A stretch of 64,000 nt of DNA, taken from NCBI GenBank assembly GCA_964609075.1, contig CAZSQP010000003.1, positions 36,907 to 100,906 of the forward strand, in the 5' to 3' direction. This document shows, in pieces, positions 4,001 to 37,506 of the stretch. Origin of the DNA: an uncultured Candidatus Saccharibacteria bacterium (GTDB taxonomy: Bacteria; Patescibacteriota; Minisyncoccia; Minisyncoccales; GWA2-38-27). The translations under genes were made by a program, and so were the position numbers. A model generated the notes under the pieces. The model did not search any database, had not been told where the DNA came from, and saw only the letters and a program-made list of their open reading frames with translations. Within the stretch, counting starts at the first letter, position 1; every line of letters starts with the position of its first letter.

Positions 4001-5137
4001 ATGACCCACAAAATTATTATCCCTCTATTATTTCTTATTCTGCCTGCTTTTGTCTCCGCTTCCGTAGTCATTAATGAAATAGCCTGGATGGGAACAGAAA
4101 CTTCATATAACGACGAATGGATAGAATTAAAGAATAAAGGAAAAGAAAACATAGATCTTGAAGGATGGATTCTTAAGTCAGAAGACGGAAGCCCGGAAAT
4201 AGAGCTGGAAGGTGAAATTAAAGCTAACTCTTTTTATCTTTTGGAAAGAACAGACGACAATACAACTCCAGAAAAAGCTGATTTAATTTACACAGGAGCT
4301 TTAAGCAATAAGGGGGAAAACCTAAAATTAATAGATTCTTCGGAAAAGATAATAGACAAAGTTTTATCTTCTGATGGATGGATGACAGGAGACAACAAGA
4401 CCAAACAAACAATGGAAAGAAATAGCTCCTGGCAAACCAGCCAAGAACCGGGAGGAACGCCGAAATCAGAGAACTCCCGAGGATCTGGAAAGCTCGCGGA
4501 GAAAAGTTCTCCTCAGGCCCTTGCAGAGAAGGAGCCTTTGTCAGCTGAAAGCTATCCTGGAAATATTGTCTTTACAGAAATTATGCCCTCTCCCGAAGGA
4601 CCGGACGCAGAAGAAGAATGGATTGAGATATACAATAAAAACGAATTTAAAGTAAATCTTAATCTTTGGCAGATAAAAGACAAAAAAGGAAGCATAACTA
4701 CTTTTACTTTTCCAGATAAAACAATATCTTCTGGAGGATATTTAATTTTAAGGAGGCCTGAAACAAAAATCACCCTCAATAATTCAGGAGACGGCCTGGA
4801 ACTTATAAACCCTAAAGGAAAAATAATAGATTCTATTGATTATGGAAAAGCTTCTCTTGGTGAATCTTATAGTAAAAAAGACAATGAATGGGCCTGGACT
4901 ACTATTTTGACCCCTGGATCAGAAAACAAATTAACCGAGGACGGGCCTCGGTCAGCTGAATCCGTAGAGGACGGGCCTCTATCAAAATCTCCTTTTAAAG
5001 AAGAGCCGTCTCCAGAAAAAGCGAAAGCTCAGGTTAGTGAAGATATTAGAAATAAGAACTCCTTTTTGATAGCTTTAATAGTGGCTTTGGTTTCAGCTTC
5101 TGCTGTCTTGTATATAAGAAGAAGCTTTAGTATTTAA
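4001..5137 (+). CDS. Secreted lamin-tail-domain (LTD) protein with two LTD repeats and a C-terminal TM anchor
   Basis: Signal peptide. Two LTD signatures: VVINEIAWMG...EWIELKN and IVFTEIMPSPEG...EWIEIYN. C-terminal hydrophobic segment LIALIVALVSASAVLYI. Confidence 0.6.
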   Translation: MTHKIIIPLLFLILPAFVSASVVINEIAWMGTETSYNDEWIELKNKGKENIDLEGWILKSEDGSPEIELEGEIKANSFYLLERTDDNTTPEKADLIYTGALSNKGENLKLIDSSEKIIDKVLSSDGWMTGDNKTKQTMERNSSWQTSQEPGGTPKSENSRGSGKLAEKSSPQALAEKEPLSAESYPGNIVFTEIMPSPEGPDAEEEWIEIYNKNEFKVNLNLWQIKDKKGSITTFTFPDKTISSGGYLILRRPETKITLNNSGDGLELINPKGKIIDSIDYGKASLGESYSKKDNEWAWTTILTPGSENKLTEDGPRSAESVEDGPLSKSPFKEEPSPEKAKAQVSEDIRNKNSFLIALIVALVSASAVLYIRRSFSI

Positions 5138-5203
5138 ATAAAAAAGAGCAGAAGGAGAGAACTTCTGCTCTTAAATATGTAAAGAACTACTTTCTTCTTC
5201 TTA
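5098..5203. repeat. Copy A of a roughly 105-bp imperfect direct repeat (partner at 6268-6373)
   Basis: Carries the intact 3' end of the LTD gene, a terminator hairpin, and a degenerate remnant of the PEP-CTERM coding tail. Confidence 0.7.
5145..5171 (-). terminator. Rho-independent terminator (10-bp stem AGAGCAGAAG/CTTCTGCTCT); U-tract on the minus-strand transcript
   Basis: Perfect hairpin followed, on the minus strand, by TTTTTTATTT. Identical copy at 6315-6341. Confidence 0.6.
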
Positions 5204-5225
5204 TTAGAAAAGATTCTGCAAGAGA

Positions 5226-6227
5226 TTACTCAGACCGCAGGAACGGTTCTATAGCCTTGGCTAATCTTGCGCGCAATACTCGCAGATTGTTGACCAAAAC
5301 CTCATCTTTTTCTGTCTGCATCCGCTGTATTTGAATAGATATCAACCGGTCAATCTGTTTGGTTTTCCTTAAAGTAGTTGTGGCGGCATCGCTCAATTCG
5401 GGTACCATCTTTGCAGATAGAGCAAATGCTTTTGCCGAATCAACCGCGGCCTTTACGTAAAATGGGTTGTCAAACTTATCAAAGGACACTTCTCCTAGAT
5501 ACTTCGGACCGTGTTTGAACTCAAAGGATGGTAAAGTTGGCTGACGAGCAAGCTCCTTTCTTCTTGTTATTATATCAGTAAGCTTTTTCGCTGAAATAGC
5601 AAAAGATTCAGCAGGACTAATTTTGTTTTCGTCTGTTTTTCCGATTTGCCCTGGAAGAGCAGAAATTTTCAGGGTAGTAATAGATGGCCAGCCGAGTTGT
5701 TTGCAATTTTTAGGAACACTGTGTTGATAACATCGAATTTCAAACATATAAACTTCCGGTGTATAGCCAAGCTCTTTCTCTGTCTCGAGAACAAAGGGGA
5801 AGTAAGCACTTTTCGTACACTGAAGCCATCTCCATGGCCCTTTCACGCTTTTCGCACAGTAGATATTAACAATAATAATTTTTCCGATTTTAATACCGAC
5901 ACTGGGTTTTAATGTTTCTCCTGGGAATTCCCCAAGACTGCCGGATCGATGTTTTAATATATCACCTCGCTTTGCCTGATCGTGGCTGAAAACTCCGCTT
6001 AGTCGCTGCCCCTCGTAAGGACAGTAAATCCGCAAAATATCGCCTTCCTTAATCGGTCCCCAGGCTCTTTCTTCGCCAGGACTGATGACATTACTGACAT
6101 TGCCGCTCATTGCATTTGAGACCGGAACCAGGAGAGAAAGTGCTACAACAAACAAGATCATCGTTACGATTCTTGCTCTTTTCATCGTATTCCTCCTTCT
6201 TAGGGTTATTAAGTTGTGAAAGTCCAC
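5226..6227 (-). CDS. Hypothetical secreted protein (signal peptide, no recognised domain); GC-rich relative to background
   Basis: 333-aa ORF with a strong SD (AAGGAGGA) and an N-terminal signal peptide MKRARIVTMILFVVALSLLVPVSNA. About 43-47% GC against a background of about 33%. Confidence 0.5.
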   Translation of the reverse strand: MDFHNLITLRRRNTMKRARIVTMILFVVALSLLVPVSNAMSGNVSNVISPGEERAWGPIKEGDILRIYCPYEGQRLSGVFSHDQAKRGDILKHRSGSLGEFPGETLKPSVGIKIGKIIIVNIYCAKSVKGPWRWLQCTKSAYFPFVLETEKELGYTPEVYMFEIRCYQHSVPKNCKQLGWPSITTLKISALPGQIGKTDENKISPAESFAISAKKLTDIITRRKELARQPTLPSFEFKHGPKYLGEVSFDKFDNPFYVKAAVDSAKAFALSAKMVPELSDAATTTLRKTKQIDRLISIQIQRMQTEKDEVLVNNLRVLRARLAKAIEPFLRSE

Positions 6228-6267
6228 CTAATTTAGAATTAACATATTTTAAAACACCTGTCAATGT

Positions 6268-6373
6268 TGTACAGCTGTTTGTATATAAGGAGAAGCTTTA
6301 TTATTTAAATAAAAAGAGCAGAAGGAGAGAACTTCTGCTCTTAAATATGTAAAGAACTACTTTCTTCTTCTTA
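6268..6373. repeat. Copy B of the direct repeat (partner at 5098-5203)
   Basis: Carries a degenerate remnant of the LTD gene 3' end (which gives rise to the spurious + ORF 6110-6352), the same hairpin, and the intact 3' end of the PEP-CTERM gene. About 90% identical to copy A. Confidence 0.7.
6315..6341 (-). terminator. Rho-independent terminator; duplicate of 5145-5171
   Basis: Same hairpin sequence followed by a U-tract on the minus strand. Confidence 0.6.
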
Positions 6374-7373
6374 GCAGAAGAGATCCTGCCAGAAGAAGAA
6401 CGAGGGTTGCGGGCTCTGGAATATGAGCACCGTAAATTCCCTGAAGATTGCTCCAAACCAGGAATTCGCCATCGACATCAAACTTGGAATTGATGTCCAG
6501 AGTCCCTACCTCTTCCTTGGTGAAAGAGTTGAAGATACGAATTCCCCAAGGACCACCTTGAAAGATGAATCCTTCACTCTCAATAGGGACACTTCCTCCT
6601 TCACTGAAAATAAATTCCTCTTCTGTTGAGAGGTCATATCCGTAAATAGAACTATCGTCCCGTCCATCATGCCAGAAAATAAAGTTTTCTCCAACGGAAA
6701 CACTTATCTGATCACCCGGAGCTTCGCAGACGGTAAATGTTTCGCTGGTGTTTAGGTTATGGGCCCAAATATCATAGTCGTGGAAACCTTCTTCATCAGA
6801 ATAGATAAAAGATTCCCAGGCTACAATATTACCCTTAATCGAAGGTCTTTCTGAAAATCTTCCGCTACCAGCTGAAATAGGAAAATCTTCACCGGTAGAA
6901 AAATTATAACCGCGAATACCCCAGCCGGTTCTGTAGACTGCGATATCTCCATCCATGGAGGTTTCATGCTGAACACCTTGAGTAACAAGCGGAAACTCCT
7001 CTTGGGTGGTCAGGTTGTAGGCGTAAATATCACAGCCTTCACAACCTATATCATCCTTTCTTCTTTGGTCTTCCCAAACAACAAAATTATCCCCAATAGA
7101 AAGAGACGTCTGAGGGTGTACTTCTGTGCAAATGGGGAATTCTTTCTTTTCAGCCAAATTGTAACCGTAAATATCATCATTCAAATCCGTTATATCCCAA
7201 TTACGCCGATCGATCCAGGCAACAAAGTTTCCTTCCACGCTCAGACTAGAAAAAGGAGGATCTATCACATGTTGAGTACGTTCTGTGATAGTAAATCTCT
7301 CCAGATCAGCAAAAACCGGACTTGCCAGAAAAACAAACAGGGTCACTGTCGGAATGATTCTTGCAGCTTTCAT
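6357..7373 (-). CDS. Secreted beta-propeller-repeat protein with a C-terminal PEP-CTERM sorting signal
   Basis: Signal peptide. Six repeats of the type G(D/E)NFV(V/A)W.D.R..DIYGY(N/D)L. C-terminus IPEPATLVLLLAGSLLLRRRK = PEP motif + TM helix + Arg-rich tail. GC-rich (about 45%). Confidence 0.55.
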   Translation of the reverse strand: MKAARIIPTVTLFVFLASPVFADLERFTITERTQHVIDPPFSSLSVEGNFVAWIDRRNWDITDLNDDIYGYNLAEKKEFPICTEVHPQTSLSIGDNFVVWEDQRRKDDIGCEGCDIYAYNLTTQEEFPLVTQGVQHETSMDGDIAVYRTGWGIRGYNFSTGEDFPISAGSGRFSERPSIKGNIVAWESFIYSDEEGFHDYDIWAHNLNTSETFTVCEAPGDQISVSVGENFIFWHDGRDDSSIYGYDLSTEEEFIFSEGGSVPIESEGFIFQGGPWGIRIFNSFTKEEVGTLDINSKFDVDGEFLVWSNLQGIYGAHIPEPATLVLLLAGSLLLRRRK

Positions 7374-7448
7374 TTCCCCTCTCCTTAATCTCAGGGTTCT
7401 TGTTTAAGAACTAACTTTAGTTTACTACTTTTAAAACTCTCTGTCAAA

Positions 7449-10400
7449 TCAAAAGGGAATTATCTCTTTCCATTCTGGAGGAAAAATAACATCTCCAACA
7501 GTCAAAGGCAAGTTTATTGTACAGCTATGACCATCTGAATCTGTGGCTTTTAAGCTTAATGTATAGGCTCCTCTGTTGTTATAATCATGGATTGAGGGCG
7601 GCGTTTTATCCCCTTTGTTTACAACTGTGCCGTCTCCAAAATCCCATACATAATCGCAGTCATCACAATATCTAGAGTCGTTAGTAATCACTTCAATTTT
7701 TTCTCTTTCTTCAAGATCAATTGGACTTTCCACACAATTTGCCTGTCCATCCGTTTCCACATCACAGGAAGTAGGACCGGTTTTAATATCACTGTTCTCA
7801 TCTAAAACCTGATAAGTAAATTCCGGCCAAGGCCAAAAATCGAAGCTAAAAGGAGGATGTTCCCAGCCAGAGTCAGCACCCTCGCTATCCCAAACTTTTA
7901 CTCTCCAATAATGATTGCTATCTACTCCAAAAGGCCTTGAATCACCATCTATGGTTAATGCAGAAGATTCACCACCCGTCTCACAAGTATTAAAATCTAG
8001 AGTAACACAACTATCAATTATACAGTTTCCATTTTCGAATTCATCAAGATTACCACAAATGGATAGAGCAGAAAAATCACTATCGCTCCCCCTTTTAATT
8101 TGGACTTGATAACCAGACTGAGAATCACCGTCCGGATCATCATAATCCCAATTGAATATTGCTCCCATATGATTGTGAAAACAACAATCAACCGGTTCTA
8201 CATCAAGAGGGGTAACGTTGGGAGAATTATTTTCTGAAACAGTAATATCAATATCTGTCTCTGCGAATTTTTCATCATTCTCAATCTCGACATAAGCGCT
8301 GTAATTTCCAGAACTGACATCAGAAGAATAATTACAAACTAAGGTACAATATCCATCTTCGTTCCCATTGGCATTGCCATCGCAAGAAACACTTTCTGAA
8401 TCAACACTTGCTCCACAATCATGATTTAGGATACTAACTGCTCCATGATCACCTTGATACATATCGGAATATTTAAGATCATAGGTAACTTCCACGCTTT
8501 CATCGGAAGTTTTGGTTATCTCAACCTCGCTTTCTGAACCAAGGAAATTAACACCTGAACCTTCAGCTGAATCCAGTTCTACTTTAGAGTTTGCTATCTC
8601 CACATAGTAAGTTCTCTCTGTGCTTTCCTCGACAACCCTATTTCCTTCTGAGTTTGTAAGAGAGGTTGTCATTTCCATTGGATAATACAGACCATGGCAT
8701 TCAGTATCCGTAATCTCATTCTCCCAATAATATCCCTTACAATAACATTTTTCGTCTCCCTGACAGTCAAAATCAAAGGGCCAATAAAAATAGTGCTTCG
8801 TTTTTTCTACATTAGCAATAATTGCTTTATCAAAATAAGTGAAGCAACTTACATCGTTTTTAACTTTAATTTCCGCTTCAACCGGAGCACCTATGCTTTC
8901 TATTGTTTCTCCATCAGCCACCGTACACTCAGATGTTATTTCAACCCCTGTTAAGGAAACTGACTTGAAATTACCATCTTTTTCTCCTGAGTCAGAAACA
9001 GAAACTTCTTCGGAATTATCATCAACGGGGTTGCTTTCATACTCGTACTTATCGTGCACTTCTGGATATGCCGGATTTCCATATGAAACTCCCTCATCTG
9101 TCACTTTCGTTAAAGTACACTCTATAGGACCATCTACTGAAATAGTCATCTCTCTCTCACAATTAACTTGAGTTCCGATACAGGCAGCACTATCTAACCC
9201 ATAATACCAACCATCTGGAATAGTATGCGCATCATACCACATAGGATAAGTATAATTCAGACCAAAATATTCATCTCGATAATAATTATTAGCATTATTA
9301 CAAGCAGTTTCAAAAGCGTATTTCCCTCCTTGATAGGCATAGTAACCCTCTAGACCTGGAGGGCATTCTTCGTCATCAGCTGCTCCGCCAAGAGCGCATC
9401 TTCTAATATTAGAGTTGTTGGAAGAATAATAAACACCTGAGTCATCAAGCCCTGTATTATTCAGCCAATTTACAACAGGCGTTCTTATATAACCTGTTTT
9501 CCTTTCATAATCTCCAGAAGGATAAGAACTGTCTTTTATTACTTCTCCCGGGCTGACATTAGTTGGAGAACCGCTATCAGAAGATATCTCTGTTTCACTA
9601 GAATCTTTCCAGGCATCATGAAAAAATTTGACATACATATCCTGCTCGGTTTCTATTGGAATCCAACTTGTCGATTCTCTCTCGCCTTGATCATTCCAAG
9701 TCCAAGCTGTTTCTCCTTCCCATTGATCATACCAGTACTGACAACATTCTTGATCTCCGCCATCACATTGGAATTTAAAAGTTCCATATCCAGATTCAGG
9801 ATAAGAAGAATCTTCGTAGCTTCCTGAAGAAAGACTCATTACAAGAAATGTTGACAAAAAAGCAAAAACTAAAACAAGTGCAACCCTGTTCCATCTGCCG
9901 TCTCCTTTTTTAAACTTTCTAAAGATTAGGTACAAACCTATACCTCCTATAACTAATAATAAAATTGAAAGAACAATTTTCCACAAAAACATAGGAGGAG
10001 AAGGTATCTCTCTTTCTGAAAAATCGGAAAGGTTATAATCTATCTCTATTTCATCAATTATCTTACCTGAAATACTATATATCCTAGCGACTAGAATAAC
10101 TTCATCATATCTTTTGCCTAGTGCAAATTCTTTTGTAATTGAAATCTTATCACTGGAAATAGTACCCAAGTAGTCCATTTGGGTTAAGCCCATACCTGTT
10201 TTTTTATCTTTAAGAAAAACTAACACCCTACCGGAAAAAAGAGTAGAGGAATCGGTAATATTAGAGAAACAGGCAAACAAGGTGTTTTCTTTTCCTTCTC
10301 GAAGAGGAAAATTCTTAATTCCAGCTGAAATAAATCTAGCTCTTCCACCACCTACAGTAAATCTCGTCTCTGTCATAGATTTCTGTCCTTCTCCTTCAGC

Positions 10401-11939
10401 TTCAACTTTAATAACATAAGCGCCAGGATCCAAATTAGAGAATTGAAACTCTATAAATTGTTCTGAATCAGCTAGAGAAACATCTTTTTCTTTATGGTAT
10501 TTAGAAATTATTGAATCCTCATTTAATAAATCAAAACGGTATATATCTGCAGAAACACTAGCAGAACCTTCAGTAAGCGTACTCTTTAAGGGCAAAGAGA
10601 TTGAAACATCTCCTGGTTCAAGAATAGGGAAAAAGGTAGCTGTGTCGATTAAAAACTGATTTAGCTCTATCTTATTATTTTCGAACCAAAAACCTTCATC
10701 AGTTCCTTGAATTTCTAGGTTTATTCCCCTACCAGAAAATCCAGGAGTATAAGTACTTCCGCTTAAAGATATTTGCTTATCACTGGCAAAATATAAACCA
10801 ATATTATAATTTCCAGCCATAGCGTTTTCCGGAACAGTCCAACTAAATTCTAATTCTTTCTCCTCGCCCGGCCACAAATTAATGTCTTCAAGAGCAATAA
10901 AATCGTCTACAAAATAATTTTTTTGATGAGGTTCTTTATTTGGTCTATTCCGATAAACCTTTATATAAACCATTCCTTCAGCTACCGGATAAGAACCTTC
11001 GTTTAGAACACTTGTCTCAAAAAAGATTTTGTCACCAGCTTTTAAGTCTTTTTGAGAACCTCCTTTCACTAGAAAATTCTTAAATTTAACACCTCCTGAT
11101 TCAAAATAATCAGAACAACTACCGATCTCAGCTTCGGTTTCTCCCTCTTTTATTAAATTAACTCTGGATTCTTTGTTTAAAAACTCAAGCCCGACAAAAC
11201 CTAATAATCTATCCCAGAAACTAGAACCTACTTTTACATTCGTTCTTCCTTCTGATAAACAAGCTTCTGCTAATTCTATTTTTCCTGGAGGAGGAGAACC
11301 GGGATTACTATTAGCACAAATTCCCTCTTCAAAGTTTCGTTCTACCGCTACTGCCCCTAGACTAGTATCTGTATATTTTTTATTTTTACAATAAGAATCG
11401 CAATTTCCCGCTGGACATTGACATTCATTAGGCTCCCCCGGGGGTATACATTGACCTGGGCAGGCATCATCTTGAGTAGGTTCACATTCCTCGGGATATT
11501 CTACTATACCATCTCCACATACTGCACTAGGAGTGGGTGTAGGAGTGGGTGTAGGAGTGGGTGTGGGAGTGGGAGTGGGAGTGGGTGTCGGTGTAGATTC
11601 AGGCTCTGGAGTAGGTGTCGGTGTAGATTCAGGCTCTGGAGTAGGTGTTGGTGTAGATTCAGACTCTGGAGTAGGTGTTGGTGTAGATTCAGACTCTGGA
11701 GTAGGTGTTGGTGTAGATTCAGGCTCTGGAGTAGGTGTTGGTGTAGATTCAGGCTCTGGAGTAGGTGTTGGTGTTGCTGAAGAAGTTGGTGTAGGGGTAG
11801 GAGTAGAAGCCTGAACTATATTAACATTTCCTAATAAGGAATTATTCCCCGTTTTTAAAGTAAAAGTATTTATTAATACAAAGAGACAGAATAGAGCTAT
11901 TCCGCCCAAAAATAAATATTTTAAAAGTTTCTTTTCCAT
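7449..11939 (-). CDS. Giant (1496-aa) cell-surface protein with an N-terminal Pro/Thr linker, Cys-rich modules and two internal TM segments
   Basis: Signal peptide. [10 protein letters not shown] repeats. Many Cys clusters. Hydrophobic segments [21 protein letters not shown] and [18 protein letters not shown]. No recognised catalytic motif. Confidence 0.55.
11581..11760. repeat. Tandem repeat, 30-bp unit x6, plus flanking GT-rich hexamer repeats from 11529, encoding the [10 protein letters not shown] linker
   Basis: Unit taggtgtYggtgtagattcaRRctctggag read directly from the sequence. Confidence 0.85.
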
Positions 11940-12151
11940 TTTTTTATTTAAACTTATTATAATTTATACCTTATTTAAAGTATAACACTCCCAAACAAAA
12001 CAACAAGGAAGTTTTCCACAAATTTTTTATCTTCTTAGAACAGTTTTAAAGGGCCAGCTATTGACAAAAGGTTAAAAAAATAGGAGAATAAAGACAGAAC
12101 AGTTAAGGTTCCTTCAAAATCCATTAACCTGCAATCTGAAAGGAAGACGAG

Positions 12152-13561
12152 ATGAAAAACATGCCGCTTGCCCTAGCAGTATTCCTTGTTTTTACGGCAA
12201 CCCTAAACGCGGGTCAGGTCAGGGTAGAGACACCTTCTGCGGGACCTTGCGGGTACTGCACAGTTTCCCTGCCCGAGAATTACGACCCTGAGAAACTCTG
12301 GCCAACTGTTTTCTGCTATCATGGCAGAAACGGAAGACCCACCACCTTTCCCTATGAGAAGTTCACAGACGGTAAAAACTTCGTCCTTGTCGGTGTAGAC
12401 TATTACTGGAACAGCATGGACACCAACAGCAGGATCGACAGAGATGAAGCCAACGCCAAGCAACTCGTCCAGGATCTCTCGAAAAAGTTCAGTATCCATC
12501 CCAACTATGTCTTCTTGGCTGGCAACAGCGCTGGAGGTTTCTTGGCCAGTGGAATCGCAGAAAAAGATCCTTCCCTATGGGCAGGACTAATGATTCTGGG
12601 TTCCGGACGTTACGAAAACCTCCATAAAAGACCTACTCTTCCCGGTTTTGGCTCCCAAAGACTCTTTGGCGGTTTTCACATCGCAGTCCCCAGAAAAAAG
12701 AGGACGGGACTTAACGGCATGCCTATCTATGTAGGAGCCGGCTCAAGCGATGAAAACCACAAATGGGCTAAGTGGGCAGTTTCCTATTACAAATCGAGAG
12801 GAGCCTCGGTCATTTTTGAAACCTGGTCCGGGGGCCACGGCCATTACCCCGAAACCGAAATTCTCAACAGATGGTTTGAGGAGTTCGGTCCTTTAAGAGA
12901 GGCCAAGGCAAAAACAGCTCAGGCAGAAAAAGCAGAAGAGAGAGGCGACCTGGGAGAAGCATACCAGAATTACAGGGAAGCTGCTTACATCCCGGGCGAC
13001 TACGCCTTGGTTCAGGAAGCAGGACAGACAGCAGAAGAGATCAAAAAGAAAGCTGACGATCTATTCTCTGAAGCAGAAAAAGCCTCCAAGGAAGGAAGAA
13101 AACAAGATGCTGTAAAGGCCTTGAGGAAAGCCTCTCACATCTTCCGGGGATGCGACTTTGGCCTTAAAGCCAAAAGTGCTCTAGTCCCTATCTTGAAAAA
13201 AGACAACACTAATGACACCAAGGCAAATCAACTCGAAAAAAGAGCTCGCAGCGCCGAGAGCAAGGGAGACTACCTCACAGCATTTAAGCTCTATCAGGCC
13301 TACCTGAGCCATTTCCAGAAAGCAAAGCGCTACCCTCTTGTGAGAAAGCACTTTCTGGAACTGAAAGAAGATCCCGATATTAGAAAAGCCTTGGAGAACC
13401 AGAGAGAAGAACTGATGTGCCAAAACTGGTTCAATATGGCTAAAAACTTTCTGAGAGCAGGAAAGGAGAAAAAAGCAAGAGAATATCTCCAAAAGATTCT
13501 CAATAGGGGAGAATCTAAATGGACCGATAAAGCTCGATCCATTTTGGAGAGAATCTCTTAG
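12152..13561 (+). CDS. Secreted alpha/beta-hydrolase (esterase/PHB-depolymerase-like) with a C-terminal helical-repeat region; strongly GC-rich
   Basis: Signal peptide. HG oxyanion motif (CYHGRNG). Nucleophile elbow GNSAGG. About 50% GC against a background of about 33%. Confidence 0.6.
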   Translation: MKNMPLALAVFLVFTATLNAGQVRVETPSAGPCGYCTVSLPENYDPEKLWPTVFCYHGRNGRPTTFPYEKFTDGKNFVLVGVDYYWNSMDTNSRIDRDEANAKQLVQDLSKKFSIHPNYVFLAGNSAGGFLASGIAEKDPSLWAGLMILGSGRYENLHKRPTLPGFGSQRLFGGFHIAVPRKKRTGLNGMPIYVGAGSSDENHKWAKWAVSYYKSRGASVIFETWSGGHGHYPETEILNRWFEEFGPLREAKAKTAQAEKAEERGDLGEAYQNYREAAYIPGDYALVQEAGQTAEEIKKKADDLFSEAEKASKEGRKQDAVKALRKASHIFRGCDFGLKAKSALVPILKKDNTNDTKANQLEKRARSAESKGDYLTAFKLYQAYLSHFQKAKRYPLVRKHFLELKEDPDIRKALENQREELMCQNWFNMAKNFLRAGKEKKAREYLQKILNRGESKWTDKARSILERIS

Positions 13562-13568
13562 CATTAAT

Positions 13569-13595
13569 AGGGTGACCTCGGTCACCCTCTTTTTA
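13569..13595 (+). terminator. Rho-independent terminator (AGGGTGAC-ctcg-GTCACCCT followed by CTTTTTAT)
   Basis: Perfect 8-bp GC-rich stem plus T-tract immediately after the esterase stop. Confidence 0.8.
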
Positions 13596-13635
13596 TACAT
13601 TGCCCTTAAAAAAACATTTTGTTATTATCTAAGAT

Positions 13636-15519
13636 ATGATAGCCTTTTTATTCTTCCTATTTTCAATAATTATCGGACTTTTTTTAATATATTCTTTAAG
13701 GTTAAATCTTTTTTTTGAAGAAAAGCTTACTTGGAGTTTAATTATAGGATCTTTATCCTTAACCTTCTCTTCCTTTTTGCTTTCTCTCTTTTTAGGATTT
13801 AATAGGAACGTAATTTTGATCTCTTTTCTCTTAGTTCTTACTCTGCTTTTAACCGTTCTGAGAATAAGAAAGATAGATATTAAAAACACGCTTCTAAAAG
13901 ATTTAAGAGATTTTAAAAAAAGAATAGATAATAAAAAAATAGTTCCTTTTTTAATTCTCTTTATTATCTTCTTTGCTTTCTTTTCTATTGTCTGGTCTAA
14001 AGTATTTTTTGAAACAGAAGAAGGATTATTCACTATAGCCATAGGAGGAGTTTGGGGAGACTGGGCAGCTCATAATACTTATCTCTCTCATTTCTTATAT
14101 TCAGATCAAATCTCTTTTAAAAATCCTATCTTTGTAGGAGAACCTTTTTCTTATACCTTTATGGCAGACTTCCAGTCAGCTGTTCTGATGAAACTAGGCG
14201 AAAGCAGGATTTTATCTATGATTATACCGGGCTTTTTATACTCTATTTCTTTAATAGTCCTTCTTTTTTACTTTATTCTCAAGATTACAAAAGATAAAGC
14301 TGTAAGCATTCTTTCTGTTTTTCTTTTCCTTTTCGGGAGCGGACTAGGATTCCTTTATCTTTTTAAGGAAATAGATGGAATGAATCTCTTGGAAATTATA
14401 AATCATTTAAAGAACTCTCATACAGCTTTTACTCATATAGCAGATAAAGGAATTCATTGGACAAACTTCATGCAAGCCCTTCTTTTACCTCAAAGGGCCC
14501 TAACTATAGGATTTCCTTTAGCTATAATCTGTTTTACCTCTCTCTACAAAGGAATAAAAGAAAATAGCTTCAAGCTTTTAATACTAGGAGGAGTGGCAGC
14601 TTCTTTCCTGCCCATTCTTCATATTCATTCTTTAATTGCTTTATCTATTGCTTCTTTCTTTTTAATTATTCTTCTTTCTAAAAAACCTTTTAAAAACCTG
14701 ATTGCTTTCTTTACACCTATTATAATTTTGGGCGTCTGGCAAATCTTCCTTCTTTTCCCAGGAGGAGAAAGCAGCATAACTTTCAGGCTGGGCTGGCTGG
14801 CTAAAGACCAGGGGTGGCTTTATTTCTGGTTCAGAAATTTAGGCCTGTTTCTGATTCTTTTCCCTGTAAGCTTATTTTTTGTAAAAAAAGAGCTTAAAAA
14901 AATATATCTTTCTTTCTTTTCTCTTTTTATCATTACCAATCTCTTTCTCTTTCAGCCTCACGATTATGATAATATTAAAATAACTATTTACTGGTTTTTA
15001 CTGACATCAGTTATTATTTCTGTATTTTTAGTGAAGCTTTGGAAAAAAGATATTCTTATAAAGTTCTTGATAATAATTGCTGTCTTTTTTATGACTTTTT
15101 CTACCTTTCTGGATATCGGCCACTTATGGACTAAAAAAGGATATCTCTTTATCTCCCAAAAAGATATAAAAAAAGCTGAAACAATCAGAGAAAACACAGA
15201 TCCTGATTCTGTTTTTCTGACCTCGGACGATCACAATCACTACGTTTCCTGCTTAACAGGAAGACAGGTAGTAGCAGGCTACGGAGGATGGCTTTGGACT
15301 TACGGCATAGATATTTCTCAAAGATTCGGAGAAATAGAAATTATGTTTCAAGGAAAAGAAGGAGCTAAAAAACTGCTTGAAAAATATGGGGTTGATTACG
15401 TTTTAATCGGCCCCAGCGAAAAAAATAAGTTTAAAGCTGAAGAGGATTTTTACAAAGATAATTATTCTCTTTTCTTGAATATGGAGGAAGCTAAAGTTTT
15501 TAAAATAAATGAAAATTGA
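13636..15519 (+). CDS. Polytopic membrane protein, probable GT-C-fold glycosyltransferase
   Basis: More than 12 predicted TM helices and a C-terminal soluble domain. Overlaps the downstream PMT gene by 11 nt, indicating an operon. Confidence 0.4.
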   Translation: MIAFLFFLFSIIIGLFLIYSLRLNLFFEEKLTWSLIIGSLSLTFSSFLLSLFLGFNRNVILISFLLVLTLLLTVLRIRKIDIKNTLLKDLRDFKKRIDNKKIVPFLILFIIFFAFFSIVWSKVFFETEEGLFTIAIGGVWGDWAAHNTYLSHFLYSDQISFKNPIFVGEPFSYTFMADFQSAVLMKLGESRILSMIIPGFLYSISLIVLLFYFILKITKDKAVSILSVFLFLFGSGLGFLYLFKEIDGMNLLEIINHLKNSHTAFTHIADKGIHWTNFMQALLLPQRALTIGFPLAIICFTSLYKGIKENSFKLLILGGVAASFLPILHIHSLIALSIASFFLIILLSKKPFKNLIAFFTPIIILGVWQIFLLFPGGESSITFRLGWLAKDQGWLYFWFRNLGLFLILFPVSLFFVKKELKKIYLSFFSLFIITNLFLFQPHDYDNIKITIYWFLLTSVIISVFLVKLWKKDILIKFLIIIAVFFMTFSTFLDIGHLWTKKGYLFISQKDIKKAETIRENTDPDSVFLTSDDHNHYVSCLTGRQVVAGYGGWLWTYGIDISQRFGEIEIMFQGKEGAKKLLEKYGVDYVLIGPSEKNKFKAEEDFYKDNYSLFLNMEEAKVFKINEN

Positions 15520-16870
15520 ATATTTTAAGAAAAACTGGCATTTTATCTTCCTTTCAATATCTGCTTTCTTAACCCGTTTTTTCTTTCTAGCTTATCCTTC
15601 AGAAACTGTTTTTGATGAAGTCCATTTTGGAAAATTTGCAAGTTACTACTTTAACCACCAATACTATTTTGACATCCATCCTCCTTTAGGAAAAATGCTC
15701 ATTGCGGGCTTTACAAAGATTTTCGGACTCCATCCTGAAGCTACTTTTTCTAATATAGGAGAAGGAGTAAGCAGCGGAGAAATATTTCTTTTAAGATTCC
15801 TGCCAGCTCTAACAGGAGCTTTACTTGTTATCTTAATTTATAAGTTGGTCCTTAAAATAGGGTTATCTAAAAAAGCAGCTTTTTTAGCAGGCTTTTTAAC
15901 TCTTTTTAGCTCCACTCTATCAGTCCAATCAAGATTAGTTTTAGTAGATATATTTCTTTTATTCTTTGGATTTCTTTCTCTTTACTTCTTTTTTGACTGG
16001 GAGAAAAAGAAGAAACTATATGTTCTTCTTATAGCTAGCTTTTTCGCAGCTTTGTCTTTCAGTATTAAATGGACGGGGCTTACTTTTTTTGGATTAATTT
16101 TCCTTTTCAATTTTTTAAAAATATTTAAAACCAAAAAATACAAAGATACAGCTTTTAAATTAATACTTCTATCCTTGGTTTTTGTTATAACCTATTTTGC
16201 TGTCTTCTTTGTTCATTTTAAGATTCTTTACAAGTCAGGAACAGGAGACGCTTTTATGAGTTCCTCATTTCAAAAGAGTCTAGAAGGAAATAATTTAGAA
16301 GATAATGTAAAAGCAGCCGGTTCATTTGAGAAGTTTATAGAATTGAATGAAGCTATGTACAGATATAACTCAACTCTAAAAGCCGATCACCCTTTTGCAA
16401 GTAAATGGTATCAATGGATTTTAGGAAAAGGTTCTATCTGGTATTGGTCAAAAAGCACAAATTCTAAAACAGCCAATATTTATTTAATAGCTAATCCTTT
16501 AATATGGTGGGCTGTAATAGCTGGTGTAATAACCTCTCTTATTCTTTTTTCAAGAAAAACATTCAGAAAGAAAGTACCTCTCGAGATATATATCTTTACT
16601 ACAGGTTTTTTTGTAAATATAATTCCTTTTCTAAAGATAAACAGAGTGACTTTTTTATACCACTATCTTCCTTCTTTGATCTTTGGAATACTTGTTCTTT
16701 CCGCCCTTTATAAGACAGTATTTAAGAATAAATTCTCATCCCATTACCTAATATCTTTTCTTGTTCTCGTCTTTCTAGTTTTTCTTTTGCTTCTGCCTTT
16801 AATTTACGGTTTTCCTTTAGAAAACAACATACTTCAAAAAATCTATTCTCCTATAATAGACTTCCTGTAA
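15509..16870 (+). CDS. Dolichyl-phosphate-mannose protein mannosyltransferase family (GT39/PMT-like) glycosyltransferase
   Basis: Hallmark N-terminal loop FDEVHFGKFASYY...DIHPPLGKML of the PMT family, plus a polytopic membrane topology. Confidence 0.7.
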   Translation: MKIEYFKKNWHFIFLSISAFLTRFFFLAYPSETVFDEVHFGKFASYYFNHQYYFDIHPPLGKMLIAGFTKIFGLHPEATFSNIGEGVSSGEIFLLRFLPALTGALLVILIYKLVLKIGLSKKAAFLAGFLTLFSSTLSVQSRLVLVDIFLLFFGFLSLYFFFDWEKKKKLYVLLIASFFAALSFSIKWTGLTFFGLIFLFNFLKIFKTKKYKDTAFKLILLSLVFVITYFAVFFVHFKILYKSGTGDAFMSSSFQKSLEGNNLEDNVKAAGSFEKFIELNEAMYRYNSTLKADHPFASKWYQWILGKGSIWYWSKSTNSKTANIYLIANPLIWWAVIAGVITSLILFSRKTFRKKVPLEIYIFTTGFFVNIIPFLKINRVTFLYHYLPSLIFGILVLSALYKTVFKNKFSSHYLISFLVLVFLVFLLLLPLIYGFPLENNILQKIYSPIIDFL

Positions 16871-16916
16871 AATAAAAACAGCCCCTCTAAGAAAAGGGCT
16901 GTTTTAAATCTTCCTT

Positions 16917-18524
16917 CTAATTTCCTAACAACCTGCTTATTTGAAACATCAAAGAGTTTATCATCTGACGCATAGAAGCAAGAAGTCTTTGAGAAGCAGT
17001 ATCATTATTTGCTGAGTAGGGGGTTGGACTAGGACTATAATTATATGTTGGTGTTGGTGTAGCTGTTGGAGTTGGAGTTGGAGTTGGAGTTAGTGTAGGA
17101 GTAGGAGTTGGAGTTGGAGTAGGAGTAGGTGAATAAGAATAGGTTGGAGTTGGAGTTGGAGTTGGAGTAGGAGTAGGTGAATAAGAATAGGTTGGAGTTG
17201 GAGTTGGAGTTGGAGTTGGGGTTGAAGTTGGAGTTGGAGTTGATGCAAGAACACAAGCAGCTGCTTTTATCTTTTTTTCTCCAAACCATCCCTCTTTTCT
17301 AATAACTTGTAGTTCGCACACACTTCCAGAAGGGCAATCTGTAGAGTTAGCTTCCAGAATTCTATATTTATAAGTTTTACCATCCCCCTTCTTAATTTCT
17401 TTTGGCTGGCAAAAATATTCTATTATTGCAGGATTACCTTCTCCCTGAGGACACTTATCTTGTTCTGTAATCTCTTCATACTCACCTGCAATCTCTTTCA
17501 CCCCCGTAGTTTCTCCCGCTTTTTCTAAGTTGTTTCCTCCATCAGAATCGCTACAAGCTGGTGGTTCAGCTAAGCATCTTCCATTCTCACATCTGTTCAA
17601 AGGAGGAGGGCATTCTTCTATTACCATTGATGCCTCTTTCATATCGCGACTAACCCCAAATTTTCCCAAAAGGCCCCCCTTCGGCATTTTAAATCCAGTC
17701 TTTTCACAATATCCTTCTTCTACTTCAGTTTTAGAATGACATTTATCACTAACATGTTTCCATTCGCTTTCATCGGTAGGATTGTAGGGACTCCAACTAG
17801 TAGTCTCTCCTTTTTTCTTTATATCATGTCCATCGTTCTTCGGCCCATCTGAATCATAACAATTGGTTTCAGCCCCTGCTACTCCTTTTAAACCACCTCC
17901 TGCCTTTGAAATTCCCTCTCTCACTGCTGACTTTAATTCCTCGGAAGAAAGTTCAATTGTTTGTTTGCCTCCCACGGCCTCTGTCGCCGATGCTAGAAAC
18001 TCATTAGCCATACTTACAATTTCTCCTTCAAATCTTCCGTCAACAGGCAACCCTGCTTCTTCTTGAAGTTTCCTCGTCGCTGCAGAAGTCTTAGATAAAA
18101 AATAAAGGGTCTCCTCATTAAGAGAGCCAGCGCCACTAGAAGCAACTTGGGTTTCTGGAGTAAAGTTAAGTATGCTTTGCCAACAAGCAACATCCTCGCC
18201 TATACTTCCATAGGTCAATGATCTCTCAAATCCACCTTCTTCAACAACTGGCCCACAAAGGATAGCCCACCTTATAAAATGATCTATAGTAGGAGCCTCA
18301 GATGAATAATAAATTGGAGGAGTTACCTCTGGACTAGAACCCGAAACTAATGGGGTAGGAGTTGGAGCCGATCCTTCTTTTTCCTTAATCCCGCTAATTA
18401 AAGATTTAAGCTCCTCTACCTTAGCCCAAAGACTGTTTAAAGATACCGCTTCAACCTGAAACGTAAACCCGAGAATAAAAACTCCTAAAAAAATGATTAG
18501 AAATATTTTGGAATATGGTTTCAT
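16917..18524 (-). CDS. Secreted Cys-rich protein with a C-terminal Pro/Thr (TPTPTP...YSYSPTPTP) repeat region
   Basis: Signal peptide [26 protein letters not shown]; PT repeats. Confidence 0.5.
17041..17262. repeat. Tandem hexamer (gttgga) repeats with an embedded roughly 54-bp duplicated unit, encoding the PT/YSYS linker
   Basis: Read directly from the sequence. Confidence 0.85.
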
Positions 18525-18654
18525 AATTTTATATTAACTTTATCTTATTATATTCTACCTTTTATGTTAATAAAGTGTCAAAAAAAATGTGGAAAACTTG
18601 TTAAAATACTCTTAAAAAATAGACAAAATAAACTTATTCTAGTAGAATTAAGAT

Positions 18655-19368
18655 ATGAGCGGACATTCACATTGGAGTTCAATCAAACATCAAAAAGGGA
18701 GAGAAGACGCTAAAAGAAGCAAGGCCTTCTCTAAAATATCCCGCTTAATCTCTGTAGCTGCCAGAGAAGGAGGGGGAGATCCTGAGAAAAACCCAAAATT
18801 AAGGCAAGCTTTAGACAAAGCCAAGGATTTTAATATGCCCAAAGATAATATTGAAAGGGCTGTCAAAAGAGGAACCGGAGAAATAGAGGGGGGAAGACTG
18901 GAAAATGTAACTTATGAAGCTTACGGTCCGGGAGGAATAGCTGTAATAATAGAAGGAATAACAGATAATAAGAACAGAACGCTAGAAGAGATAAAACAGA
19001 TTCTTAACCAGAATAAAGGAAAGCTGGCAGACGAAGGGTCTGTTAGATGGCTTTTTGAAAGAAAAGGGGTTATTACTATAGACCCCCAAGAAAAAGACAA
19101 AGAAGAGATAGAACTCTCTGCTATAGACTCGGGAGCGGAAGATATATATGCTGTAGACAACTTAATCGATATTTATACAAAACCTGATGAACTAGATAAG
19201 GTAAAAACTAATTTAGAAGGGAAAGAAATAAAGATAAAGTCCGCTTCTTTAGACTGGGTTCCAAAAGAAGAAATAGAAACAGAGAAAAAAGAAGCCTGCC
19301 AGAAGCTTTTTGAACAATTAGACGAAAACGATTCTGTCCAGGATATTTATTCTAATTTAAAATCATGA
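18655..19368 (+). CDS. yebC: YebC/PmpR-family transcriptional regulator
   Basis: MSGHSHWSSIKHQKG... with full-length YebC architecture; overlaps ruvC by 4 nt. Confidence 0.85.
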   Translation: MSGHSHWSSIKHQKGREDAKRSKAFSKISRLISVAAREGGGDPEKNPKLRQALDKAKDFNMPKDNIERAVKRGTGEIEGGRLENVTYEAYGPGGIAVIIEGITDNKNRTLEEIKQILNQNKGKLADEGSVRWLFERKGVITIDPQEKDKEEIELSAIDSGAEDIYAVDNLIDIYTKPDELDKVKTNLEGKEIKIKSASLDWVPKEEIETEKKEACQKLFEQLDENDSVQDIYSNLKS

Positions 19369-23921: not shown

Positions 23922-24320
23922 ATGCAGTTTACGGTTCCACAATTTATAGAAAGAGAAACTAAAATAGTGGGTCCCCTTACCTTCAAGCAGTTTATTTTTG
24001 TAGGGATTGCCGGGGGTCTTTGCCTTTTTCTATACTTTACTGTTTCTTTCACTACCTTTATAATTCTGACCGTATTAATATTAGGAACAGCTTTTTCTCT
24101 AGCCTTTGTTAAAATTAAGAAGATCCCTCTTCCTGTAATAATCAAGAATTTTTTTTCTTTTCTAACAGAGCCTAAAGTATATCTCTGGAAAAAGAAAACC
24201 AGTCCTCCGAAAATACAAAGAAAAAAAGTTAAAACAATAGAAAAAGAAGAAAAGGAAGAGCCTAAAGTGGTGGGAAGAAGTAAACTTAAAGATCTCTCGA
24301 CAAGACTTAAGATAAAATAA
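23922..24320 (+). CDS. VirB3/PrgI-like small two-TM protein
   Basis: 132 aa with two adjacent TM helices, immediately upstream of virB4. This gene order is typical of Gram-positive-type (MPF-FATA) T4SS. Confidence 0.4.
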   Translation: MQFTVPQFIERETKIVGPLTFKQFIFVGIAGGLCLFLYFTVSFTTFIILTVLILGTAFSLAFVKIKKIPLPVIIKNFFSFLTEPKVYLWKKKTSPPKIQRKKVKTIEKEEKEEPKVVGRSKLKDLSTRLKIK

Positions 24321-24322
24321 TT

Positions 24323-24952
24323 ATGGCCCAGAACACTACCCAGGAATTTCTAAAATTCGATAAGATAAGAGACGGAGTAATAATTCTCAAAAACAAAGGG
24401 CTGAGAATGGTTTTGATGGCTTCTTCTGTAAACTTTGCCTTAAAGTCAGATGAAGAACAACAATCTATTCTTTACGCTTTCCAGAGCTTTCTTAATTCTC
24501 TGGACTTCTCTTGTCAAATAATGGTTAGCTCTAGAAAAATAAATATTACAGGATATTTGGAAAAGTTAGAAGAGATAGAAAAAAAAGAGGAGGAAGAGCT
24601 CTTGCAGATGCAGATCTCAGAATACAATAAATTCATCAGAAACCTTGTCCAAGAAGGATCTATAATGCAAAAAAGCTTCTATGTCACGGTTCCCTTCTCT
24701 TTAGCGGAGACAAAGGGAATATCAACTGCTAAAAAGATAAAAAGAGAAGTAGAACTCACAGAAGTAGAATTTCAAAGAGCAAAGAACCAGCTTCTTCAAA
24801 GAGTAGAATTTGTTATTTTAGGATTAAGGGCTTGCGGAATAGAAGCTGTTCCTTTAAAGAATTTGGAGCTAGCAGAACTCTTTTGGAGTCTACATCATCC
24901 TTTAGAGGCAGAAAGGGGATATTATCCGGAAATACCAACTGACTTAACATGA
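24323..24952 (+). CDS. VirB4/TrbE-family ATPase, N-terminal (CagE_TrbE_VirB-like) segment encoded as a separate ORF
   Basis: 209 aa resembling the N-terminal domain of VirB4. Stop TGA overlaps the next ATG (ATGA). Confidence 0.55.
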   Translation: MAQNTTQEFLKFDKIRDGVIILKNKGLRMVLMASSVNFALKSDEEQQSILYAFQSFLNSLDFSCQIMVSSRKINITGYLEKLEEIEKKEEEELLQMQISEYNKFIRNLVQEGSIMQKSFYVTVPFSLAETKGISTAKKIKREVELTEVEFQRAKNQLLQRVEFVILGLRACGIEAVPLKNLELAELFWSLHHPLEAERGYYPEIPTDLT

Positions 24953-26745: not shown

Positions 26746-27179
26746 TGACAGAAGAAAAAGAACAGAAAGCCCCTTCTCAAAAAGCTCCCCCTAAAGAAAA
26801 AGGCGCTTCAGAGGAAGCAGCTAATGAGATCGAGAGAATAGGAAACTTTATAAGCTTATACGGAATAATAATGTTTTCTATGGCTATAGTTTTAGATCTA
26901 GTAGGCCTCATTCTCTTAGTTCTAAGTTTTTTAGGCATAGGAATCCCTTTGTCCTTTATTCCTGACGTTATTGGTCTTGTCTTTATAGGAGGATTAATGC
27001 TATTGAGTCCTAGTGGAGGAGTAGTAGTTTCCAAAGGAGCAAATAAACTTAGCAAAAAGATAGCTAAAAAAATAGGGAAAAAAATAGGGCTCTCTTTCTT
27101 AGTAGAGCTTGTCCCTTTTGTTGGAGACATAGCCCCCTCCTGGACTGTAGCCGTTTACCTTCACTTAAAAGGCAGTTAA
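26745..27179 (+). CDS. Small polytopic membrane protein of the T4SS-like operon
   Basis: 144 aa with 3-4 predicted TM helices; start overlaps the virB4 stop (TAATG). Confidence 0.4.
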   Translation: MTEEKEQKAPSQKAPPKEKGASEEAANEIERIGNFISLYGIIMFSMAIVLDLVGLILLVLSFLGIGIPLSFIPDVIGLVFIGGLMLLSPSGGVVVSKGANKLSKKIAKKIGKKIGLSFLVELVPFVGDIAPSWTVAVYLHLKGS

Positions 27180-27182
27180 TTT

Positions 27183-31493: not shown

Positions 31494-31495
31494 AA

Positions 31496-37292: not shown

Positions 37293-37506
37293 ATTTCCCC
37301 ATCTTTTCCAGATGTTTAAAAACTGTTAAATTATCTGTTTAAAAGAAAGGGATAGAAAAAGGAAAAAAACAATTAAAAAGTTTTCCCATATAATTAAACA
37401 ATTTTTTCCTAATCTTTTTCTTCTTTTTTACCCAATAAAATTAAGAATAAAATAAAAGTTTTTAACAATACTAATAATAATAATAATTTAATATATTAAA
37501 AAAATT
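37293..37506. other. dnaA-dnaN intergenic region; AT-rich candidate DNA-unwinding element / oriC
   Basis: More than 85% A+T over about 150 bp (taataataataataatttaatatatt...). Confidence 0.3.

Follow-up and report, generated by a model that had tools for sequence, protein, structure and literature searches.

The stretch of DNA analysed here (the window) comprises 64,000 nucleotides of an uncultured Candidatus Saccharibacteria bacterium (GenBank assembly GCA_964609075.1, contig CAZSQP010000003.1, positions 36,907–100,906 of the forward strand). Towards its left end, a rightwards-transcribed gene for a surface protein with a lamin-tail domain (LTD) and a leftwards-transcribed gene for a PEP-CTERM beta-propeller protein are separated by an extra leftwards-transcribed gene, designated MID, that codes for a secreted protein. 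A duplication of about 120 bases of the junction between two convergent genes brackets this extra gene, and the analysis confirms that the duplication is real. An original prediction, made from the letters alone, had read the arrangement as the signature of an insertion without a transposase. The features of the locus are listed below, with coordinates counted from the first base of the window.

4001–5137, plus strand: LTD surface protein gene (PF00932, E=4e-33).
5102–5223 (122 nt): repeat copy A, containing the intact LTD 3′ end, a terminator and a decayed PEP-CTERM tail.
5144–5172, minus strand: putative terminator hairpin A, with an 11-bp stem and a 7-nt loop, followed on the minus strand by TTTTATTT (5134–5143).
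5187–5225, minus strand: untranslated PEP-CTERM tail remnant, SLAESFLIRRRK and a stop codon, in frame directly behind the MID stop codon, as read from the sequence.
5226–6185, minus strand: MID, a 319-aa secreted protein with a signal peptide and no Pfam or NCBIfam match.
6110–6352, plus strand: spurious open reading frame (ORF) of 80 aa, antisense to the start of MID and running into copy B.
6147–6264, minus strand: putative MID promoter, 5′ untranslated region (UTR), Shine-Dalgarno sequence and first 13 codons (−35 box TTGACA at 6259–6264; Shine-Dalgarno AAGGAGG at 6192–6198).
6274–6393 (120 nt): repeat copy B, containing a decayed LTD 3′ end, a terminator and the intact PEP-CTERM tail.
6314–6342, minus strand: putative terminator hairpin B, identical to hairpin A and 15 nt past the PEP-CTERM stop codon.
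6357–7373, minus strand: PEP-CTERM beta-propeller protein gene (338 aa; TIGR02595, TIGR04275 repeats).
7332–7447, minus strand: putative PEP-CTERM promoter (TTGACA, 17 nt, TAAACT), 5′ UTR, Shine-Dalgarno sequence and first 14 codons, the counterpart of 6147–6264.

In a gapped alignment copies A and B are identical at 113 of 122 columns, with seven mismatches and two 1-nt gaps (92.6%; blastn E=1.6e-46), and their offset is 1170–1172 nt. The longest exact block is 63 nt (5141–5203, identical to 6311–6373), and homology extends beyond it for another 20 nt at 75% identity. The direct repeat that had been placed at 5098–5203 and 6268–6373 therefore exists, although its limits are 5102–5223 and 6274–6393, the end given earlier being that of the exact block. 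Nowhere else in the 64-kb window does any part of the repeat recur. The differences between the copies are unevenly spread, with none at the 63 core positions and nine at the 59 flanking positions (Fisher p=0.001); five lie within the 20 positions of 5204–5223 and three within the 96 of 5108–5203 (Fisher p=0.004). This pattern suggests a single older event, with the centre either homogenised later by conversion or held by selection on two terminators, and the identity of the outer strata (~75–85%) is comparable to that of the 5′ flank described below (87% over ungapped columns).

Copy A opens with the final 36 nt of the LTD gene, including its true terminus (..LYIRRSFSI, then stop), and carries the decayed PEP-CTERM remnant SLAESFLIRRRK immediately past the MID stop codon. 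Copy B is the converse, with a frameshifted LTD-end remnant (LYIRRSFII, then stop; 6279–6308) and the true PEP-CTERM tail (LLLAGSLLLRRRK, then stop), and the translations thus bear out this part of the original prediction. The ORF at 6110–6352, already suspected to be spurious, is likewise present; it results from a 1-nt deletion that puts the LTD-end remnant out of frame. The 2393 homologues of the LTD protein bear the names Patescibacteria, Parcubacteria or Nealsonbacteria, and the C-terminus of the protein is native to the family (e.g. homologue P0042 ends ..VIKRSFTL); the PEP-CTERM tail is similarly native to its own family (homologue P0007 ends ..IPEPASLTILFAGAGLLILRRR..). Since each end belongs to its own family, the remnants were genuinely copied from the adjoining genes, and both are most simply taken as dead. 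Two other origins were considered for these segments and rejected: the LTD end is not borrowed from a repeat element, its C-terminus being family-native, and the remnant behind the MID stop codon is not a sorting tail lost by MID itself, as MID homologues end ..EPFL.. without a sorting signal.

Each copy is centred on the same 29-nt hairpin (AAGAGCAGAAG-GAGAGAA-CTTCTGCTCTT), which occurs exactly twice in the 64 kb, against none expected from shuffled sequence. The original prediction gave the content of the copies correctly, apart from a stem of 10 bp where there are 11. The hairpin is predicted to be a good intrinsic terminator on the minus strand only, the plus strand having no T tract; hairpin A is a candidate terminator for MID and probably also serves the LTD gene from the other side. 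The repeat as a whole can fold as an imperfect palindrome (DNA z-scores of −5.8/−4.9 for copy A and −3.6/−2.7 for copy B) composed of the terminator hairpin and the complementary Arg codons of the two convergent gene ends, and the outer stem forms because both genes end in Arg codons (AGAAGA / TCTTCT).

This folding of 122 nt into a long imperfect hairpin, most pronounced in copy A, might indicate that A and B belong to a dispersed repeat family (a repetitive extragenic palindromic (REP) sequence, a miniature inverted-repeat transposable element, an attC-like element or a reused terminator module) that came by chance to lie beside both genes. Repeats of ~120 nt bracketing single genes recall chromosomal integron cassettes, and one related locus (L087) does carry a dispersed repeat of 46–53 nt. 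We nevertheless regard this as the least probable of the explanations weighed here, and a very unlikely one. There are two copies only in 64 kb; the outer thirds correspond to the 3′ coding ends native to the LTD and PEP-CTERM families and are not parts of an autonomous unit, and they also account for the outer stem of the fold; neither attC core motif (RYYYAAC or GTTRRRY) is found on either strand of copies A and B, and terminal inverted repeats and an integrase are likewise absent (see below). A search of metagenome and viral contig collections with a 33-nt core gave no match, and a hairpin scan of a genome-contig collection (in which the source genome is not included) gave 42 matches, which are unrelated terminators in unrelated taxa.

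Two other repeats were seen outside the window. The ~46–53-nt REP-like repeat of L087 is arranged in tandem just 3′ of the LTD gene and scattered elsewhere (8786–8880, 13971–14023, 5525–5559, 2521–2550, 8419–8445 and 9422–9442), and its sequence is unrelated to A and B. One 27-nt palindromic hairpin pattern occurs twice on an unrelated contig of Ruminococcus sp. (L004 and L015; JAFNSO010000076.1).

An independent Logan assembly of SRR15425350 contains 5174–6340 and 6344–11613 as exact contigs, both of which break inside the 63-nt core because the graph was built at k=31. The first of these is an unbranched unitig (L001) in which the 3′ end of MID is linked to variants specific to copy A, and the MID promoter adjoins the LTD remnant specific to copy B; the novel junction between MID promoter and LTD remnant is therefore real DNA. 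It is accordingly very unlikely that two strains or loci sharing a terminator were wrongly joined, so that the tandem layout would exist on no single molecule. The metagenomic source and an exact repeat that is unresolvable at small k would favour such an artefact, and the Logan contigs do break at this repeat. Against it stand the unitig junction and the private variants on both sides of the core, and the repeat is resolvable with k above about 75 or with paired reads.

The products of the two minus-strand genes have nothing detectable in common. MID matches itself alone in a word-indexed search, and a full HMMER search adds seven remote homologues (24–53% identity), which make a very small family. 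All seven are secreted proteins, none has a PEP-CTERM tail, and in the family alignment both the N-terminus and the C-terminus (..RLAKAIEPFLRSE) of MID are family-native. Low-confidence models (pLDDT 39 from the single sequence and 56 from eight sequences) suggest that a Cys-containing, beta-rich N-terminal part is followed by a helical bundle at the C-terminus, and Foldseek found nothing below E=0.01 in the PDB. Phage records gave no match to MID, leaving a phage origin unsupported. The PEP-CTERM protein scores 18.9 bits with TIGR02595 (cutoff 16) and 17.6 bits with PF07589 (below the gathering score of 20.7), and its tail PEPATLVLLLAGSLLLRRRK comprises a C-terminal PEP motif, a hydrophobic helix and a basic cluster; Pfam scans reveal no exosortase among the 45 window ORFs. 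The two genes have unrelated interiors of about 920 and 940 nt (BLASTP E>0.2), and an origin of MID and the PEP-CTERM gene as diverged paralogues was rejected, the proteins being without detectable similarity.

MID had also been described as a GC-rich gene, as if this set it apart. Its GC content is 42.9%, that of the PEP-CTERM gene 43.0% and that of the window 36.4%; GC at third codon positions (GC3) is.391 for MID and.369 for the PEP-CTERM gene, and the window gene means are.364 for GC and.298 for GC3. Both genes are equally above the mean, and composition therefore does not single out MID.

The two genes do share their 5′ regions, a similarity that the original prediction had overlooked. 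The similar stretch begins at the −35 box (TTGACAG), takes in the UTR and Shine-Dalgarno sequence and ends at about codon 14; its alignment has 131 columns, of which 90 are identical, 13 mismatched and 28 gapped; one gap in the leader is of 3 nt and in frame. With a score of 46 (the next being 40) the pair ranks first of 990 gene pairs in the window, and the score was reached by none of 2000 shuffles. When the parts are scored separately, the upstream 100 nt rank fourth and the first 60 coding nt second of the 990, and the joint chance of both ranks for a pre-specified pair is about 1e-5. The similarity is specific to the neighbour, the MID upstream region scoring 46 against that of the PEP-CTERM gene and 17–26 against those of MID homologues elsewhere. 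The offset of the 5′ flanks (1182–1185 nt) can be set beside that of the repeat copies. The similarity stops at 6264 and the LTD-end remnant of copy B begins at 6274, leaving at most 9 nt unassigned. The 5′ regions are probably homologous, judging from these alignments, and the homology is rated as probable and not certain because the individual blastn pieces are marginal (E 0.05–0.18). MID has probably inherited a duplicated promoter and leader.

Taken with the repeat, the second flank gives the locus the form of two colinear direct units that are homologous at both ends, with the end of the first abutting the start of the second. The reading we prefer, tentatively and at something less than an even chance, is that a PEP-CTERM unit of ~1.18 kb was duplicated in tandem, that one interior was replaced by an unrelated gene, and that the terminator was homogenised later. 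The contiguous segment of LTD end, terminator and PEP-CTERM tail shows that the LTD and PEP-CTERM genes were adjacent and convergent before MID lay between them, and we infer the following order of events. The duplicated unit would have begun ~40 nt before the end of the LTD gene and extended across the shared terminator and the entire PEP-CTERM gene as far as the −35 box of the latter, giving units at about 5102–6264 and 6274–7447. In the LTD-proximal copy some 920 nt (5224–6146), starting within the signal-peptide codons and reaching to 12 codons short of the PEP-CTERM stop codon, would then have given way to the MID coding sequence, including the stop codon of the latter, the eight leader bases TGTTTGTT common to both genes being a possible crossover point. 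Such a replacement would strand the old PEP-CTERM tail untranslated and leave the duplicated LTD end beside the distal copy. Finally, the central 63–96 nt around the terminator would have been kept or made identical; gene conversion between the copies appears the likeliest cause, with a possible contribution from selection, since each gene is now terminated by its own copy. As read from the sequence, each minus-strand gene now appears to have its own promoter-like site and an identical terminator.

The absence of mobile-element features counts for tandem duplication. The original prediction had noted that no transposase is present, and Pfam scans of the 45 window ORFs indeed reveal neither transposase nor integrase domains, nor is there a tyrosine recombinase in the 64-kb window. 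The ends of the segment between the repeats (5224–6273) have no terminal inverted repeats, the best inverted match scoring 5, below the shuffle mean of 6.4.

Several points weigh against the duplication with replacement. Homology does not run throughout the unit, and the unrelated interiors require a secondary replacement, so that at least three events are needed (duplication, in-frame interior replacement and conversion). The 5′ homology is gappy (28 of 131 columns) and marginal in its blastn pieces, and a chance match of similar E-value occurs between the gene bodies. Both termini of MID align with its family, and a complete foreign gene with its signal peptide could have entered, which would make the leader similarity less diagnostic. 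The similar GC contents of MID and the PEP-CTERM gene would be explained just as well by two arrivals out of a single donor pool with shared leaders. Relatives of MID and of the PEP-CTERM protein were sought in 5.8 billion clusters and 1.84 billion representatives, and neither the intermediate with two PEP-CTERM copies nor a genome with an empty site was found; the searchable data contain no close relative, and in them MID, the PEP-CTERM protein and the LTD protein have best non-self identities of 57%, 37% and 58%. A look-up of the exact LTD protein sequence likewise matched no record.

The simplest alternative, and a possible though less likely one, is close to the original proposal that the extra gene entered together with a duplication of about 100 bp. 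A MID module (promoter, Shine-Dalgarno sequence and ORF without terminator; 5224–6273, 1050 nt) would have been inserted into the 49-nt convergent junction, with ~120 nt of target duplicated by the filling-in of staggered breaks about 120 nt apart or by replication template switching at the hairpin, and the 5′ similarity would reflect a common donor lineage or shared regulation. The repeat does bracket exactly one complete, family-native ORF with a promoter-like site and Shine-Dalgarno sequence, and the MID stop codon lies 2 nt from the start of the unique segment. In composition the MID and PEP-CTERM genes are equally atypical (GC.429 and.430, GC3.39 and.37, against means of.364 and.298), and genes of both kinds co-occur 3′ of the LTD gene in a related locus described below (L131), suggesting that they may travel in one gene pool. 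However, an insertion of this kind does not predict a 5′ similarity specific to the neighbour, nor its stop within 9 nt of the repeat. A recent duplication should moreover be evenly similar, whereas 5204–5223 at 75% identity adjoins 96 nt at 97% (p=0.004), and a duplicated LTD end is seen in none of 78 related loci. The repeat is also, as had been pointed out, far longer than the target duplications made by transposases (120–122 nt versus about 2–15 bp), and we know of no insertion mechanism that yields target duplications of 120 nt. The part of the original proposal that places MID later between the two genes stands, and its mechanism probably has to be revised in view of the 5′ homology that abuts copy B.

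Direct repeats of a homology region around all of the added DNA are also the classical product of a single crossover, and such repeats are what is found here. The locus might accordingly have arisen by Campbell-type integration of a 1.17-kb circle, consisting of a junction copy and MID, through crossing over within the identical core, in which case the population may hold the filled site as well as the empty site and circles. Every difference between A and B lies outside the 63-nt core, both decayed halves would sit on the circle and both intact halves on the chromosome, and the Logan graph, built at k=31, forms a loop that agrees with either linkage (the MID unitig of 1167 nt equals the period minus the core plus 60). 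Even so, we regard integration of a circle as improbable. It presupposes that junction sequence already flanked MID in some earlier arrangement, leaves the 5′ homology unexplained and calls for a 1.17-kb circle without a replication function, and a 109-kb contig was assembled across the region.

A perfect repeat of 63 nt exceeds the minimal homology for RecA recombination. RecA could thus delete the 1,170-nt MID unit precisely, and the deletion would restore intact LTD and PEP-CTERM ends free of any scar.

The junction lies at the left end of a larger block of genes that is peculiar to this lineage, delimited by the LTD gene and yebC:

5138–18654: lineage-specific island of 13.5 kb (13,517 nt) between the LTD gene and yebC.
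18655–19368, plus strand: yebC (TACO1 family), the direct successor of the LTD gene in most relatives.

In relatives the conserved block has the order tsaE (leftwards), type II secretion system (T2SS) ATPase, ruvB, LTD, yebC, ruvC and tyrS (leftwards). Conserved genes were placed by tblastn in 80 related metagenome loci, of which 69 carry both LTD and yebC; the gap between these two has a median of 26 nt and is no longer than 300 nt in 62 of the 69. One extra gene of 1.3–1.5 kb is present between them in six loci, a convergent GH76-like gene in five (four distinct contigs, as L046 and L047 are copies of one locus) and an unrelated gene in the sixth (L109); the loci with the GH76-like gene represent a subclade. 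The adjacency in relatives indicates that the deep ancestral layout is LTD followed by yebC. The convergent LTD–terminator–PEP-CTERM arrangement that the original prediction took as ancestral did precede MID, yet it is an intermediate state within the lineage-specific island. The seven island genes, which encode secreted or surface proteins and a PMT-type glycosyltransferase, are MID, the PEP-CTERM gene, the gene for a PKD protein of 1496 aa, three ORFs that lack firm domains and the glycosyltransferase gene; no homologue of any of them was found in the 80 related loci. The LTD–yebC junction is thereby marked as a hot spot of gene gain in the lineage. A CRISPR island inserted beside an LTD gene has been described in Roizmanbacteria (PMC6509639).

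Accessory genes of the MID and PEP-CTERM types recur around the conserved block in Patescibacteria. One contig (L131:1–4841; JGI Ga0373630_0039880; Patescibacteria, GC.40) carries an LTD orthologue and, convergent to it, genes for a response regulator, MID homologue P0028, hicAB, a PEP-CTERM protein (PF07589, 25.3 bits) and a dockerin protein; no repeat flanks them. On another (L132:1–4711; JGI Ga0373629_0049369) the closest full-length homologue of the window PEP-CTERM protein adjoins the other side of the block, beside tsaE, the T2SS ATPase and ruvB. A broader interpretation would be that the shared promoter and leader, together with the tail and terminator flanks, form a reusable chassis at a Patescibacteria gene-gain hot spot 3′ of the LTD gene, into which secreted-protein bodies are added, swapped and popped out by homologous recombination without a dedicated recombinase. 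We offer this as a speculation with a low probability. If it were true, the 63-nt repeat would make the presence or absence of MID reversible within populations, and the L131 and L132 cases would be products of one process.

Some other features of the window were also noted. An ORF within the island (12152–13561, plus strand, 469 aa) is the strongest compositional outlier of the window (GC.479, GC3.513; z = 2.8 and 3.9); its only matches are weak ones to alpha/beta-hydrolases, and it is probably a separate recent acquisition. Two island genes contain related tandem repeats that code for Pro/Thr/Glu/Ser linkers, at 11518–11837 in the gene for the 1496-aa PKD protein (period of 30 nt) and at 17020–17268 in ORF 16917–18524 (periods of 12–18 nt). 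Further to the right, a type IV secretion-like cluster at 23922–33921, whose position is conserved in relatives (L046, L048), comprises PrgI, a TraC-like protein, a VirB4/TraG-type ATPase, a 1436-aa ORF and two proteins with type IV secretion system pilin domains; the 1436-aa ORF (27183–31493) includes four repeats with a 120-nt period (29727–30172). Tandem repeats of 42 nt occupy 47946–48197 inside the leftwards-transcribed ORF 46892–48397. The dnaA and dnaN genes are located at 35940–38634, placing the A/B locus ~30 kb from the probable replication origin.

The locus provides an example of an ultra-small uncultured Patescibacteria genome that has gained a gene for a surface or secreted protein without mobile-element machinery. 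The sequence itself records the previous gene order, the new gene appears to have inherited a duplicated terminator, and the arrangement could collapse precisely. PEP-CTERM-tagged proteins and an uncharacterised secreted family travel together in Patescibacteria, which may matter for the cell-surface biology of episymbionts.

Several known systems resemble the locus in part. Transposons and insertion sequences likewise leave a direct target duplication on both sides of the added DNA, although here the duplication is of 120–122 nt and not of about 2–15 bp, and both terminal inverted repeats and a transposase are missing. Integron cassettes, with the ~120-bp repeats of Vibrio cholerae, are similar in that foldable repeats of ~120 nt bracket a single ORF of ~1 kb; in contrast, this locus has no attC core sites (RYYYAAC ... 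GTTRRRY), no IntI and two copies only, the gene has its own promoter, and the repeat is made of the neighbours' coding ends and an ordinary terminator. The elements e14 and phage 21 of Escherichia coli reportedly insert in the 3′ end of icd, carry a substitute end and leave an icd pseudo-end of ~165 bp. They share with the present locus long imperfect direct repeats of a gene 3′ end, one copy being functional and the other a remnant, but they are many kb long, have a tyrosine integrase and a short core site and duplicate the end of one gene, whereas here 1.05 kb with one cargo gene and no integrase lies between duplicated ends of two genes. Campbell-type integration, as of suicide plasmids and episomes, also flanks the added DNA with direct repeats of the homology region, and precise excision restores both genes; it differs in that nothing at the locus points to a circle, a replicon or an empty site, and the origin of a circle of MID and junction would be unexplained. 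Closest to the reading we prefer is duplication and divergence, including innovation-amplification-divergence, with which the locus shares two adjacent and abutting direct units of about 1.17–1.19 kb with colinear ends, independence of any recombinase and a structure made collapse-prone by its direct repeats. It departs from that model in its completely unrelated interiors, one copy having been overwritten rather than diverged, and in the unequal preservation of its flanks (100% in the core and ~70–87% elsewhere). The locus thus adds one more case to a known class of rearrangement scars; its value is mainly illustrative, and it is not a new kind of genetic system.

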